The notes beneath the pieces were generated by a model. That model was not told where the DNA came from. It saw only the letters and a program-made list of their open reading frames with translations, and made no database searches. Source: Candidatus Helarchaeota archaeon (GTDB taxonomy: Archaea > Asgardarchaeota > Lokiarchaeia > Helarchaeales > RDOG01). Taken from it: a stretch of DNA of 64,000 nt. Shown one piece after another: positions 4,181-52,833 of the stretch. Every line of letters begins with the position of its first letter. Position 1 is the first letter of the stretch. A program made the translations under genes and the position numbers. The stretch is taken from assembly GCA_019058315.1 (NCBI GenBank), contig JAHPZH010000002.1:160001-224000 (forward strand), in the 5' to 3' direction.

Positions 4181-5134
4181 ATGGGTGAATTACGCTGGAA
4201 CCCAGTATTTAAAGAATGGATAATAGTAGCTGCACATCGACAAGCAAGACCTCAACTTCCAGAGGATTTCTGTCCTTTTTGTCCCGGTGCTCCAGAAGTT
4301 CCAACTTCTGATTGGAAAGTCAAATTTTTACCAAATAAATTCGCATCTTTAAGTATGGACCCTCCAAATCCAATATCTAAAAATGAATCTCTATTCCAAG
4401 TAAAACCCGCAAAAGGACAATGTGAGATAATTTTATACACTCCTGAGCACAATACCACTCTTGGAAAACTACCAGTAGAACATATTCATACATTAATTGA
4501 TTTTTGGGCAGAACGATATGAAATAATTGGCTCTCAAGATTTTATTAAATATGTTCTAATATTTGAGAATAGAGGACGAGAAATTGGTGTTTCTTTGGAC
4601 CATCCTCACGGACAAATTTACAGTTTTGGATTTATCCCACCTAATATTCAACAGGAAATAAATAGTGGTAATGAATATTTTCAAGAAACAAATCGTTGTC
4701 TCTTTTGCGATATTGTTGATAGAGAAATAAAAGATGGAAGCAGAACTGTTCTCGAAAATTCTGATATTATTTGTTTTGTTCCCTTTTATGCTACTTGGCC
4801 ATATGGAGTTCATATTTATCCCAAACGGCATGTTCAAAGTTTATTAGATATGAACGAGACAGAACGGAAAAATCTAGCACAAATATTAAAAGAAATTCTT
4901 TTAAAATATGATAAGCTTTTTGATATGCCGCTTCCTTATGAGATGATATTCCATCAACAACCCTCAGATAATAAGAAATATCCTAATTATCATTTCCATA
5001 TTGAATTTTATATTATCCATAGAGCTAGAAATAAGATAAAATATCTTGGGGGCTGTGAACAAGGAGGAGGAGTTTTTGTGAATCCGATAACTCCAGAAGT
5101 AACTGCGGCAGAGTTAAGAGATATTAAAATATAA
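4181..5134 (+). CDS. galT: galactose-1-phosphate uridylyltransferase
   Basis: ELRWNP, RQARP, CPFCPG, FENRG..IGVSLDHPHGQ catalytic motif. Start moved to the ATG at 4181, after the GGTG SD. Confidence 0.95.
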   Translation: MGELRWNPVFKEWIIVAAHRQARPQLPEDFCPFCPGAPEVPTSDWKVKFLPNKFASLSMDPPNPISKNESLFQVKPAKGQCEIILYTPEHNTTLGKLPVEHIHTLIDFWAERYEIIGSQDFIKYVLIFENRGREIGVSLDHPHGQIYSFGFIPPNIQQEINSGNEYFQETNRCLFCDIVDREIKDGSRTVLENSDIICFVPFYATWPYGVHIYPKRHVQSLLDMNETERKNLAQILKEILLKYDKLFDMPLPYEMIFHQQPSDNKKYPNYHFHIEFYIIHRARNKIKYLGGCEQGGGVFVNPITPEVTAAELRDIKI

Positions 5135-5237
5135 TTTTTATCATATTTTATTATAAAACTAAAATTATTACTTTGAAAAGGAACCAAATTCTTAATTAAA
5201 AGAGAAAAAATATATCTTTTTCTACCGCATTATTACT

Positions 5238-48093: not shown

Positions 48094-49278
48094 ATGGTAA
48101 AAGTTGCTAAACGATTAGAGAAATTTGAATATGCAATTCGAGATGTAGTTGCAGTTGCACAAGAATTGGAGAAAAAAGGGAAAAAAATTACATATTTATC
48201 TATAGGAGATACTGCAAAATATTTTGAAACCCCAGAGCATATAAAAAAAGCTTTTACTAAGGCAGCTAATGAAAATTTTAATTATTATGTTGATTCTTTA
48301 GGTATTTTAGAACTCAGAAAAGCTATTGCTGAGAGCCAAAATAAAGAATACGGATTAAATGTTTCTCCAGAAGATGTCTTAATCACAGCTGGTGTGAGTG
48401 AAGCAATTGAATTTATTTATGCAGGTTTGATTGAACAAAATGATGAAATTATCATTCCAGGTCCTTCCTACCCACCCTTCAGTTCTTACTGCCTTCTTTA
48501 TGGAGGGAAACCTGTTGAGTATAAAATGGACGAAGAAAACAATTGGCAACCTGATATCGAAGATTTAAGAAAAAAAATTACAGATAAAACAAGATCAATT
48601 GTAATAATATCACCTAATAATCCAGTTGGTGTTTTATATAACGAAAAAGTATTAAAAGAAATTATTAATATTGCTGGAGAACACGATCTCCCCATTATTT
48701 CAGATGATATTTATGAAAAGTATGTATATGAAGGCTCTTTTGTAAATACAGCTTCATTAGCAAAAGATGTAAGCGTTATTACCTTTAAAGGATTCTCAAA
48801 AACATATAAAATGACGGGCTTGCGTTTAGGTTCTATTATATACCATGACCCAAATGATAAATTAACTGATTTTAAAGAGGATATAAAGAAATTAGCAAGA
48901 ATTAGATTATGTGCAAACGCACCTGCACAAATGGCTGGAATCGCAGCCTTGACTGGACCACAAGGGCATGTAAAAGAAACAGTTAAACAACTAAAACAAC
49001 ATAGAGATTTTTGTTTAGAACGCTTAAATGAAATTGAAGGGATAGAGTGTAAAAAACCTGAAGGTGCATTTTATCTATTCCCTAAAATAAACCTTGGTAA
49101 TAGATGGAAGGACGATAAAGAGTTTGTGATCGATTTTTTAAACAAGAAACAAGTATTATTCGTTTATGGCTCTGGCTTTGGAAAAGTTTATGGTCCAAGT
49201 CATGTTAGAATCGTTTATTTAGCTCCAATCTCAACATTAAAAGATGCGATGGATAAACTAGCAGAGTTTATGAAATAA
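48094..49278 (+). CDS. class I/II aminotransferase (alanine aminotransferase-like)
   Basis: EYAIRD, ISPNNPVG, DDIY, GFSKTY.MTGLRLG, PEGAFY, GSGFG. Confidence 0.92.
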   Translation: MVKVAKRLEKFEYAIRDVVAVAQELEKKGKKITYLSIGDTAKYFETPEHIKKAFTKAANENFNYYVDSLGILELRKAIAESQNKEYGLNVSPEDVLITAGVSEAIEFIYAGLIEQNDEIIIPGPSYPPFSSYCLLYGGKPVEYKMDEENNWQPDIEDLRKKITDKTRSIVIISPNNPVGVLYNEKVLKEIINIAGEHDLPIISDDIYEKYVYEGSFVNTASLAKDVSVITFKGFSKTYKMTGLRLGSIIYHDPNDKLTDFKEDIKKLARIRLCANAPAQMAGIAALTGPQGHVKETVKQLKQHRDFCLERLNEIEGIECKKPEGAFYLFPKINLGNRWKDDKEFVIDFLNKKQVLFVYGSGFGKVYGPSHVRIVYLAPISTLKDAMDKLAEFMK

Positions 49279-49551
49279 AAGAAATGATATAAATTCAAAT
49301 TGTAAACCTTTTTATATTTCAATTTTTTTTAAATTTAATACTAAATTACTAAAAAATAAAATGAATTCTCTTTTTAACAACAAAATTAGAATAGATAAAT
49401 TAAAAAACTACCAAAATTTTGAAATTTTTTTCTTTACTTTATTCATTTTTTATTTAAAATTAAAAATTAAACTCTAATTATATATAGAATGAAATAAAAC
49501 TCTTTTTAAATTATGATGTATGAATGAATGATTTATTAAAATACGAATTAA

Positions 49552-49590
49552 AATTCCCAATGATGAAGGTGATCCCAACTGATGTGAAAT
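49552..49590 (+). ncRNA. candidate C/D-box sRNA unit 1
   Basis: C box ATGATGA at 49560-66, 12-nt guide AGGTGATCCCAA, D box CTGA at 49579-82. Confidence 0.6.
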
Positions 49591-49629
49591 ACTAACTGTT
49601 TTTAATTAATATTCATCAATACCAGGATT

Positions 49630-49673
49630 TAATTATCCCAATGATGAAGAGGTGATACTCTGAGGGATAATTA
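49630..49673 (+). ncRNA. candidate C/D-box sRNA unit 2 with a perfect 10-bp terminal stem
   Basis: TAATTATCCC-A-ATGATGA-AGAGGTGATACT-CTGA-GGGATAATTA. Confidence 0.7.
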
Positions 49674-49752
49674 GTTCTAAAATTTTGAAAAATATAATAA
49701 AAAGATAGGTTAGGATAAATTAGGAGTATTTAGGAAATAAAAAATTAGAAAA

Positions 49753-49800
49753 TCAGGTTTGAATTTTTACAACTAAATCTGGTTCCACTTCAACAGCCCA
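49753..49800 (-). repeat. displaced copy of the ilvE 3' end (direct repeat of 51787-51834)
   Basis: 44/48 nt identical; encodes WAVEVEPDLVVKIQT* versus WVVEVEPDLVVKIQT*. Confidence 0.9.
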
Positions 49801-49855
49801 GATTATATCCTCAAGTTTAAAAACTTAAATATGATAAATTTTATACCATATTAGA

Positions 49856-51738
49856 ATGGTTAATAACTATAAAGGGGAAAAAAAATCAACGATTCGATAA
49901 TATTTAAAAGTAAAGTCGGCTCTGATCAGAAGAATAATTGGTGTATCTGTTGTTTCTCTCCATTAGGGCTATTTCTCTTTATTTTAGTTGTATTCCATCC
50001 TAAATCGAATTTAATATTTCAAGTAGTAGGAGGAATTGGCTCTTTATTTTTGTTTACAAGTCTTTTTTTAGTGGGCTTTCAATCCATTCGTACATTTTTG
50101 ATAATATATAATGATGGAATAAAAATTGCGACTCCATATAGGTCTTTAGGACACAAATTCATACCTTGGCATGCTATAAAAGAAATTGAATTGTATTATA
50201 GAGGGCGTATTGGTTCAAGATATGACTCTCGAACTTATTATGAAATTTACATTTTTATTAAAAATCAACCAAAATCCTTAAAAATTTCAGAACTTTGGGT
50301 AGAAAATATAGAAACAGCATATAATTTGATAAAGAAACATATTAAACCTTTGCAAAAAACTGAAAATTGTCAAAATCATCCTAAAATTAAGACTGTAGAA
50401 CAATGTCGTACTTGTGGTGCTTATTTTTGTGAAAAATGTATTGAAAAGAAAAGTATTGAGGGGTTTAAATTTTGTGAGTGTTCCTTATGTATATATAATG
50501 TAGGATTAAATAGAATAAAGAAATGTTATTTTTTCTCTCTAATTTGTCCATTGATTTTTTTAATTTCTATAATTTTAAAACTATTGATAAATCTTGAAAA
50601 CGATTTAACACTAAATCTATACATAATTTCTTTCATTCTATCACTTCCATTTGCATTTATTACAACTCCTCATGGATATGGATTTTATTTTGCTAATGTA
50701 AAAAGGAAGGAAATATTAGAACAGTTAAATATAAGATTTGATCAATATTCATTAAAAAAACTCAAGTTTTTTGTGATTTTAATTAATTTAATTAATCCAA
50801 TCTTTTATTTTTGCTTTTTTTACCTATTATATCCAAGTTCTCACATAATTTTAAGTAGTATTTTTATGTCAATCTATCTTATTTTAACAATAATTTTTAC
50901 AAAAATTTCCTATAATATTGAAAAACCGAAAAAAACAGAGGAATGGAGTACACCTTTAGAGAGACTTATTTGTTCCAATTGTGGAGAAATATTTACTTTG
51001 AAATCTGATTATTGTTCATGTTGTGGTTCTAAAATCGATATCACTCAACCAACACATAGAGAAAATAGAAAATTTAAAAGCTTTAAATGTTATAACATCA
51101 TAATAGAAAAAGAAACTCATAATGAACTTATTCTAGTCAAAGATAACCGAAATTCTGCAGAAAAATCATCAAAAACAGAGATGAAATGCATTATAGTTTT
51201 ATTAATTCCTGTTCTATTTATTATTTTATTTTCTTTTAGCTTAGAAGCACTCCAATTTTTAGTTCTTCTTATTTTTCCATTACCTATTCTTATATTTTTT
51301 CTTATTGTATATTTTTTTGAAAGAATTGAAATAAATAAAGTTCAGAAATTGACAATCGATAAAAAAAATCAAAAAATTACTTACTATAAAAATTCTCTGG
51401 ATCCAACAAAAAAAATCGAAATATATGATATTAATACACTAAAAGTAATTGAAATAAAAGATTATAGACAAATAATTAATGAGATTAGACTTATTTTTTC
51501 AATAAATGAACTGAAATTATTTGGAATCATGCGTAAAAATAATATTATTCCAATCTATAAAAAATTAAGTTCTTATTTAGAAATTCCTATAATAGGAACT
51601 GAAGGGAAAAAAGTAATAGACTTAAATGAAGAAAAACTTTATACAGATTCTATATGCTGTCTTTATTGCGGATTTAATAATCTAATTAATGATAAAATAC
51701 AATATTGTATGAAATGCGGTGAAAAAATTTATAAGTAG
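49856..51738 (+). CDS. modular membrane protein (TM, PH-like, B-box-like Zn finger, Zn ribbons); 5' part frameshifted at an A8 tract (in-frame ORF 50050-51738)
   Basis: CQNHP...CRTCGAYFCEKC (B-box-like), CSNCG..YCSCCG, CLYCG..YCMKCG. The frame is open from 49873, but the ATG at 49856 is in a different frame. Confidence 0.65.
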
Positions 51739-51786: not shown

Positions 51787-52833
51787 TCAAGTTTGGATTT
51801 TTACAACTAAATCTGGTTCTACTTCAACAACCCACCCAAAAATATCTTCTTCTTCTTGAAGTTGAATTTTTGTAAGCAAGTCATATAATTTTTGAGTTAC
51901 TGACCCTACTTTAAAATCATTAAATACATGATCTTTACCCTTGTATAACAAGGATCCTATTGGAGTAACGACTGCAGCAGTACCAGAACAGAAAACCTCA
52001 GAAGCTTTCAATACTTCGTCAATTGTAATGTCTCGTTCTTCAACTTTCATTTTTAATTTCTTTTTAGCTATATCAATTATTGAAGCTCTTGTATTTCCTG
52101 GTAATATTGATCCAGTAAGTCTTGGTGTCATTAAAACGTTATTAACTACACAGAAAAAGTTTGCAGTTCCAACTTCTTCAATATACTTACCATTTGCTGC
52201 ATCTAGATATAATTCCTGATTATACCCTTTTTCTTTAACTTTTTTTGCTGGAAGCATCGAACCTGCATAATTACAAATGGTTTTAATACCACCAGTTCCT
52301 TTGGGGGCAGCTCTATGAAATTCTGTTATTGCTAATTTAATCGGATTAAATCCTTCTTTATAATAAGGACCCACTGGAACCACAAAAATTATAAATGTAT
52401 AACTAGGGGCGGGAGCAACTCCTAAAATTGGACCAGTTCCCCATAATACAGGTCGAATATATAACGCTCCTTTTCCATATGGTGGAATATAATCTTCATT
52501 TATTTTTACTACTTTCTTGACATCATCTACGAATTTCTTTGGATCATAGGGTGGGATTAGTAAACGTTCACAACCCGCTTTGAGTCTTTTTCCATTATCT
52601 AAAGGTCTAAAAAGCACAAGTTTATTCGCTTTTGTCCTTAACGCTTTCATACCTTCGAAAATGCCTTGTCCATAGTTTAATACACATGCAGCTGGTGAAA
52701 TTTCAAAATTTCCAAATGGAACAACTTTACCTTCATCCCAACCAGTCTTTTCTTCCCACTTCGAAAGAAACATACCCTTAGTTGGCATGAAATCGAAACC
52801 GAGATTGTCCCAGTCTATATTTACATCTGTCAT
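51787..52833 (-). CDS. ilvE: branched-chain amino acid aminotransferase
   Basis: LNYGQGIFEGMKA, LYIRP, GTGGIKTICNY, EEVGTANFF, ILPG.TR.S, SGTAAVVTPI. Confidence 0.96.
   Translation of the reverse strand: MTDVNIDWDNLGFDFMPTKGMFLSKWEEKTGWDEGKVVPFGNFEISPAACVLNYGQGIFEGMKALRTKANKLVLFRPLDNGKRLKAGCERLLIPPYDPKKFVDDVKKVVKINEDYIPPYGKGALYIRPVLWGTGPILGVAPAPSYTFIIFVVPVGPYYKEGFNPIKLAITEFHRAAPKGTGGIKTICNYAGSMLPAKKVKEKGYNQELYLDAANGKYIEEVGTANFFCVVNNVLMTPRLTGSILPGNTRASIIDIAKKKLKMKVEERDITIDEVLKASEVFCSGTAAVVTPIGSLLYKGKDHVFNDFKVGSVTQKLYDLLTKIQLQEEEDIFGWVVEVEPDLVVKIQT

Follow-up and report, generated by a model that had tools for sequence, protein, structure and literature searches.

A tandem box C/D locus with guides complementary to the 16S rRNA tail in an Asgard archaeon: a candidate atypical sRNA

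Box C/D guides directed against the 3' end of 16S rRNA have been reported in archaea. [quoted passage not shown] 2017, PMC5389701). The N. equitans sites were assigned to the C/D sRNAs sR25 (Um1528), sR20 (Gm1530) and sR13 (Am1534, in the anti-Shine-Dalgarno, or anti-SD, sequence), and a chaperone-like role in 3'-end maturation was proposed for these tail guides (PMC5389701). Guides that mimic the Shine-Dalgarno (SD) sequence have therefore already been described.

Other described systems touch on single parts of such a design. Duplicated sRNA families with guide cores offset by 2 nt, and a target shifted by 2 nt, were described by Lui et al. 2018 (PMC6009581), and lineage-specific duplicates, pseudogenes and MITE-like copies of archaeal sRNAs are documented as well (PMC6009581). 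A single-site C/D RNP was found to be active in vitro with its site specificity lost (Hardin & Batey 2006, PMC1635284). K-turn hairpins that overlap the SD in the 5' UTR of l7ae are known L7Ae operators (PMC5539422, PMC6298567). A natural half-mer sRNA was not found in the literature searched. Herein, a tandem C/D locus is compared with these systems.

The C/D modules of the spacer and their conservation

The window is the whole stretch of 64,000 nt that was analyzed (G000:C5:160001-224000), from an archaeal assembly of 5.8 Mb with 30% GC; positions given without a contig are those of the window. The tandem C/D modules sit within a 770-nt intergenic spacer of 15-25% GC, and no ORF of at least 40 aa was found in 49279-50049. 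The spacer is flanked by a class I/II aminotransferase gene (48094-49278, plus strand) on one side and by a 562-aa gene without a Pfam match (50050-51738, plus strand) on the other. Beyond the latter lies a class IV aminotransferase gene (51787-52833, minus strand). An orphan copy of the last ~16 codons of this class IV gene was confirmed by alignment at ~49753-49803, and the orphan copy and the real gene end (51787-51834) bracket the 562-aa gene, which has paralogues elsewhere in the genome. Because the orphan gene end precedes it, the 562-aa gene is a lineage-specific inserted cargo. The original setting of the locus is a convergent spacer between two gene ends, and such an ancestral spacer suits an independent sRNA gene and not a 5' UTR. 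A mobile element or repeat was ruled out as the identity of the locus, which is single-copy in the genome. In the same spacer, between the hairpin described below and the orphan gene end, TTAGGA occurs three times at an exact 10-nt period (49710, 49720 and 49730). This triplet (49710-49739) may represent a short tandem repeat or a set of protein-binding sites in helical phase, and a weak Rfam SscA match of 20.4 bits, below threshold, overlaps it.

All features of the modules lie on the plus strand. Unit 1 starts with a TCCCA flank (49555-49559), identical to the unit 2 flank (TCCCA, 49636-49640). It is followed by box C (ATGATGA, 49560-49566), the 12-nt guide 1 AGGTGATCCCAA (49567-49578) and box D' or D (CTGA, 49579-49582), which overlaps the ATG of a start-stop at 49582-49587. 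An AT-rich linker (49583-49629) contains a T5 run (49599-49603) and TTCATCA (49612-49618). In unit 2, the 5' arm of a perfect 10-bp stem (49630-49639), the C helix of the K-turn, is followed by A49640 and box C or C' (ATGATGA, 49641-49647; together 49640-49647), the 12-nt guide 2 AGAGGTGATACT (49648-49659), box D (CTGA, 49660-49663) and the 3' arm of the 10-bp stem (49664-49673). Counting the 5' stem arm and A49640, the D'-to-C' linker is 58 nt.

A preliminary description of this DNA had reported two TCCCA-ATGATGA-12 nt-CTGA copies 81 nt apart, a perfect 10-bp stem that closes unit 2 into a 44-nt single-guide K-turn RNA, and a GGTGA (49568-49572) 9 nt ahead of the ATG-TGA start-stop. Each of these is present in the sequence, and its coordinates are exact except for the locus start, which at 49552 was placed 3 nt too early. 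The wording of two minimal units fits unit 2 but fails for unit 1, which has no closing stem. That these are genuine C/D-type K-turn modules is supported by the following results.

The window contains two matches to RTGATGA-N12-CTGA, whereas 0.04 are expected from its shuffles, which never gave two. The 5.8-Mb genome holds 46 RTGATGA-N10-14-CTGA strings, 6 of them in the N12 form, and most of those inspected fall in coding sequence. The unit 2 44-mer folds at -13.6 kcal/mol (z = -3.2), and its stem ends 1 nt ahead of box C and directly behind box D. When the bulge is assigned by the K-turn rules set out in PMC6298567, an AAU bulge (A49640, A49641, U49642) is followed by G-A, A-G and U-U pairs and then by G-C, which is textbook geometry. 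A relaxed hairpin scan of the whole 5.8-Mb genome (at most one box C mismatch, NTGA accepted as box D, spacers of 10-14 nt and stems of 6 bp or more) recovered unit 2 as the sole single-guide K-turn hairpin; with shuffled genomes, 0-2 were obtained at the 6-bp threshold. Unit 1 alone has no stable fold (-0.6 kcal/mol), and its box C (49561-49567) is complementary to TTCATCA 49612-49618 and paired with it in a 135-nt fold. When both units are taken as one RNA, the outer ends form only a 4-bp terminal stem, TCCC with GGGA (49664-49667). The strongest helix closes unit 2 on itself, through the flanks of C' and D and not through those of C and D.

The two units share a 24-nt stretch at 83% identity, with 4 differences in the first 10 nt and the next 14 nt identical; these 14 nt are TCCCA, box C and AG. 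An AGGTGAT guide core is also common to both, offset by 2 nt through indels and then followed by CTGA. Across the duplicated core of 38 nt, no difference is seen at the 18 positions of the flank and boxes (TCCCA, box C, AG and box D), while 4 of the 10 stem-arm positions differ. That unit 1 kept its boxes while its former stem arm diverged is weak evidence, from the pattern of substitutions, that the boxes may still be under constraint. Guides 1 and 2 share their core by descent, and the two therefore count as one event statistically.

The box C/D identity was examined at the level of boxes, fold and machinery. The boxes agree perfectly with the C/D consensus in both units, and their order at the locus, C-guide-D'-linker-C'-guide-D, is canonical. 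The guide spacers, for which ~12 nt is usual, are exactly 12 nt in both units. A C/D K-turn with a terminal stem is found in unit 2 and is lacking in unit 1 alone. L7Ae, Nop5 and fibrillarin are all encoded in the genome. The layout departs from the compact bipartite form (~50-75 nt, short linker), as the linker of 58 nt brings the total to ~110-112 nt. Rfam gave only sub-threshold C/D snoRNA matches. The best was snoZ5 (RF01226), whose 24.8 bits fall short of the gathering threshold of 60, and this match covers both units as a single RNA. Its score comes from the boxes and nothing else, and therefore no homology is claimed.

Further C/D candidates were found elsewhere in the genome. C5:129448-129502 has the same stem-CCC-A-ATGATGA...GA-GGG-stem design with a 7-bp stem (AAAACCC/GGGTTTT), and a second candidate near C5:532 kb has a terminal stem of ~10 bp with a 1-nt bulge and a variant box C. 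The former, a canonical double guide, carries a variant box D (UGGA). A further C/D-like RNA of 78 nt with a variant box C (ATGAAGA), at C5:132056-132133, lies 2.6 kb from it, and the AAAACCC/GGGTTTT terminal stem is common to the two. Most C/D sRNAs of this genome escape strict regex scans, owing to box variants and bulged stems, and such scans are unusable for counting them. C11:380008 (GTGATGA-TTGGTGATACAC-CTGA) was considered as a third unit and was ruled out; it encodes a conserved HAD hydrolase motif. A ~65-nt repeat with 11-12-bp terminal inverted repeats (CTTCCAAAAAT...), which begins with ATGATGA and ends with ATGA, has at least 3 genomic copies (C2:988-1052, C1:24482-24545 and C11:732000-732064). 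Either a MITE-like element or a conserved gene start could account for it.

Conservation, which the preliminary description had proposed as a check, was not found: no homologue turned up among 160 related genomes of the class. In pattern searches over 161 genomes of the class, every match was coding sequence or an ordinary SD; the class-wide hairpin pattern was limited to G/C closing pairs and to certain end letters, which makes its coverage partial. All class-wide matches to C-box + AGGTGA + D-box, to GAGGTGAT-N2-5-CTGA and to GGTGATCC-N1-5-CTGA were rejected as coding or as ordinary SDs before starts. The nearest look-alike was G122:C15, whose 12-nt guide forms 9 bp with the 16S tail; it was ruled out because it lies antisense within an ORF. 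Beside the orthologous aminotransferases of the order (55-63% identity) there are other downstream genes and no C/D motif. Exact-pattern scans of two public collections, of genome and of metagenome contigs, gave no match; the best aminotransferase identity was 55% in the metagenome collection and 62% in the genome collection. Closer aminotransferase relatives, at 79-80% identity, exist in NCBI Helarchaeota MAGs; the public names borne by the nearest protein relatives are Helarchaeota / Promethearchaeota. The nearest genome searched for the locus belongs to a different genus, and the absence therefore means "not conserved beyond genus" and not "not conserved". During these searches, several genomes of one genus (G075, G084, G097, G101, G110, G119 and G146) were seen to conserve GAGGTGATGAAATCTGACAGAGAGTAA, which reads as a strong SD ahead of a 6-codon ORF (MKSDRE-stop) and may be a conserved leader peptide.

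Guide complementarity to the 16S rRNA tail

The 16S 3' end of this genome is ...GCGGCUGGAUCACCUCCU. The 16S gene is split over contig ends, with model positions 1-877 on C12:1-900 and 1135-1478 on C5:1-388; ~260 nt of 16S (E. coli 930-1190) are absent from the assembly. The rRNA genes are unlinked, with the 23S gene at C5:105496-108654 on the minus strand, 105 kb from the 16S and on the opposite strand. An orphan second copy of the last ~38 nt of 16S (helix 45 and the anti-SD tail, with one C-to-T change) was also seen. It carries ~65 nt of the downstream spacer (C5 ~5065-5175, compared with ~350-460) and lies 4.7 kb past the real end. This orphan looks like a further case of the displaced spare end seen with the class IV aminotransferase gene, here at an rRNA gene.

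Pairing of the guides with the 16S tail over 9 and 8 nt had been proposed in the preliminary description from the conserved tail, and it was confirmed against the organism's own 16S. Guide 1 pairs with GGAUCACCU (16S G1529-U1537; 9 bp, -15.2 kcal/mol), which places G1530 at D'+5. Guide 2 pairs with AUCACCUC (16S A1531-C1538; 8 bp, -13.1 kcal/mol), which places U1532 at D+5. For both guides the pairing with the tail begins at D+4, and the 3 guide nt proximal to box D are unpaired. A D+4 onset is poor geometry for methylation, and duplexes of 8-9 bp are at the lower limit for guides. Guides 1 and 2 compete for one site, so they cannot serve as a double guide. Compared with the at least 9-10 bp, with D+5 inside the duplex, that a guide would be expected to show, 9 and 8 bp with D+5 paired were seen, in a set whose 16S is ~260 nt short and in which 26-28 tRNAs were detected.

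The genome uses SD-led initiation, and GGAGGTGAT-type motifs peak at about -12 to -8. The guide core is therefore a real SD mimic. The fraction of genomic 12-mers with at least 8 nt complementary to the 16S tail is 4e-4, and with at least 9 nt it is 8e-5. Shuffled guides matched the same run length in some rRNA or tRNA in 6% of cases for unit 1 and 23% for unit 2.

Perfect targets of 10-12 nt in rRNA or tRNA, which according to the preliminary description would mark these as ordinary guides, do not occur in the stable RNAs tested. No perfect target of at least 10 nt was found in the 23S, the available 16S, the detected tRNAs and the full 16S of four relatives, and the 16S genes of relatives offered no better guide site. 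Genomic guide matches of at least 10 nt are all inside long ORFs or antisense to an SD. Perfect 12-mer targets of the two guides number 1 and 2 in the genome, against ~0.24 and ~0.57 expected from a composition-based estimate, and all are in long ORFs. Two canonical sRNA candidates identified in the genome served as a positive control, and no clear rRNA or tRNA target was found for them. This indicates that target prediction is weak in this assembly.

For guide 1, two alternative sites of better geometry were found. One is 16S ~1293-1302, with 8 Watson-Crick and 2 G-U pairs over D'+1 to D'+10. The other is the anticodon loop of tRNA-Pro(UGG), with 9 Watson-Crick pairs over D'+1 to D'+9 and G37 at D'+5. 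Unit 2 has no comparable alternative site, and its next best match is mismatched at D+5.

Readings of the locus

We tentatively read these modules, with a little less than even confidence and on the strength of sequence features, as a lineage-specific, atypical box C/D sRNA locus derived from a short local duplication. It is probably one transcript that has two protein platforms and whose two guides are redundant in targeting the 16S tail. The K-turn that box C (49641-49647) forms with box D (49660-49663), on top of the 10-bp stem that closes it, would be the binding site of L7Ae, and Nop5-fibrillarin would join after L7Ae. The upstream module (C at 49560, D' at 49579) would be a second protein platform on the same transcript. 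We infer that transcription yields a single RNA bounded at ~115-125 nt, which carries both 12-nt guides and whose D'-C' linker, at 58 nt, is unusually long. The AGGUGAU cores, shifted by 2 nt via indels, would then pair with the single-stranded 16S tail at nt 1529-1538 (E. coli numbering), with predicted 2'-O-methylation of G1530 by unit 1 and of U1532 by unit 2. The job would equal that of Neq sR20, sR25 and sR13 in Nanoarchaeum. Some features count against this arrangement. The strong 10-bp stem favours folding of unit 2 alone, with its guide shut in a 12-nt loop, and TTCATCA 49612-49618 can pair with the box C of unit 1 and mask it. The single-site RNP of PMC1635284 is site-unspecific, which argues against unit 2 alone as a precise guide.

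The same two copies may be evolutionary debris, a recently duplicated and rearranged C/D sRNA gene that left one intact-looking hairpin and one stemless copy, neither a working guide, and whose match to the anti-SD is a coincidence or goes back to a single chance ancestor. This is unlikely, but it has a substantial share of our belief. The locus is a singleton conserved nowhere searched, and its 770-nt spacer of 15-25% GC adjoins a recombination scar. Unit 1 has lost any stem, the guides are not independent since their core is common by descent, and pseudogenes, duplicates and MITE-like copies of archaeal sRNAs are on record (PMC6009581). Decay alone would fit poorly with all boxes and both 12-nt spacings standing intact in both copies while the adjoining stem-arm positions diverged; a perfect 10-bp stem is also unlikely to outlast decay, and the complementarity to the anti-SD is rare among random 12-mers (4e-4). 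If the boxes do serve an ordinary methylation guide, its target could lie elsewhere, with unit 1 directed to 16S ~1297 or to the tRNA-Pro(UGG) anticodon loop and its SD likeness incidental. Both alternatives pair from D'+1 and straddle D'+5, which is canonical geometry, and the 16S ~1297 site is partly kept in the 16S of relatives. We nevertheless give this a low probability: the 16S site needs its two G-U pairs, the D'+5 position in tRNA-Pro falls on G37, unit 2 is left without a comparable alternative, and shuffled guides often score equally well. To our knowledge, tRNA-Pro G37 is not a known ribose-methylation site.

The remaining readings concern the hairpin rather than a guide. Unit 2 might be a natural "hemi" RNP, a 44-nt L7Ae-bound hairpin with or without Nop5-fibrillarin. 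Its 12-nt loop would expose an SD mimic that docks on the anti-SD of pre-16S or of a free 30S tail, and the RNP would chaperone assembly or serve as a translational decoy, without site-specific methylation. The hairpin is stable by itself, and its loop carries GAGGUGAU, a full-strength SD for this genome. A putative TATA-like run that precedes the stem start by ~23-31 nt and a short T run behind the hairpin would agree with this reading, although this DNA is very AT-rich; the site-unspecific activity of a single-site C/D RNP in vitro also agrees (PMC1635284). Such an RNP is nonetheless very improbable, being one copy in one genome with no second example among 161 genomes and without known precedent. 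An 8-bp duplex within a closed 12-nt loop would be sterically strained, and a single-copy RNA must be very abundant to titrate ribosomes. Least credible of all, and only marginally entertained, is an L7Ae-responsive translational operator, in which the K-turn hairpin would occlude the SD of a small or lost ORF or of the ATG-TGA start-stop. SD-overlapping K-turn hairpins are known operators (PMC5539422, PMC6298567), and GGTGA does stand 9 nt before ATG-TGA. By an eye reading, the l7ae leader of this genome (C5:286930-287010) may form a K-turn-like hairpin, GAUGAAGGC-loop-GCCAGAU, just upstream of the SD and ATG; this leader hairpin would fit the published design of L7Ae autoregulation. At the present locus, however, only a start-stop stands behind unit 1 and nothing behind unit 2, with the spacer free of ORFs of at least 40 aa. 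The GGTGA starts at -14, outside the SD optimum of the genome (-11 to -9), and among the upstream regions of all its genes no further C-box-plus-SD operator was detected. The known operators are weak hairpins whose folding depends on L7Ae, but unit 2 folds alone at -13.6 kcal/mol. Thus, of the features of an l7ae-type operator, the SD-like loop is present, the downstream ORF is lacking and the hairpin is stable without L7Ae.

If the modules are expressed as an atypical C/D sRNA, the modification or chaperoning of the anti-SD tail by C/D RNAs would extend from Nanoarchaeum and Ignicoccus to an SD-using Asgard archaeon. The locus would then also be a natural test of whether a C/D RNP can function on one K-turn or across a long, eukaryote-like D'-C' linker. 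At present it is one unconserved locus, chiefly useful as an annotation and as a candidate.

Comparison with described systems

The preliminary description had put the locus forward as a strong candidate for an undescribed RNA system. This is not supported, as C/D-guided methylation of the same 16S tail nucleotides has already been measured (PMC5389701) and the locus is a singleton. With no homologue in 160 genomes, it is therefore not yet callable a system.

The nearest relatives in function are Neq sR20, sR25 and sR13 and the Ignicoccus guides, which are likewise C/D guides complementary to the last ~15 nt of 16S, anti-SD included. The site measured for Neq sR20, Gm1530, is the predicted D'+5 site of unit 1, and the U1532 predicted for unit 2 falls between the sites measured in Nanoarchaeum and Ignicoccus. 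The published RNAs are canonical double guides of ~55-60 nt with measured target methylation, whereas the pairing here is 8-9 bp from D+4 and the sites are predicted. The N. equitans guides were also proposed as a stand-in for a missing RsmA/Dim1, whereas this genome has a Dim1 homologue.

The duplication has its counterpart in the Pyrobaculum sR56/sR57 families, in which modules are duplicated, indels offset the core by 2 nt and the predicted target moves by 2 nt. Those families are separate full-length genes, genus-wide and backed by RNA-seq, whereas the duplicates here lie 81 nt apart, one is stemless and none is found in the relatives searched. Unit 2 alone resembles the synthetic "hemi" box C/D RNP in having one C/D K-turn and one guide, but that RNP is an engineered construct (PMC1635284). 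The l7ae 5' UTR operators share a K-turn hairpin at or over the SD with L7Ae as the ligand; they stand directly upstream of a real start and are intrinsically unstable, whereas here there is no ORF and the stem is 10 bp. The layout as a single RNA is the same as that of a eukaryote-type C/D snoRNA with a long D'-C' spacer (snoZ5), at ~110 nt. What sets the locus apart is its architecture, that of a half-mer hairpin or that of a single RNA whose internal linker is 58 nt long, and its predicted function is of a known kind.
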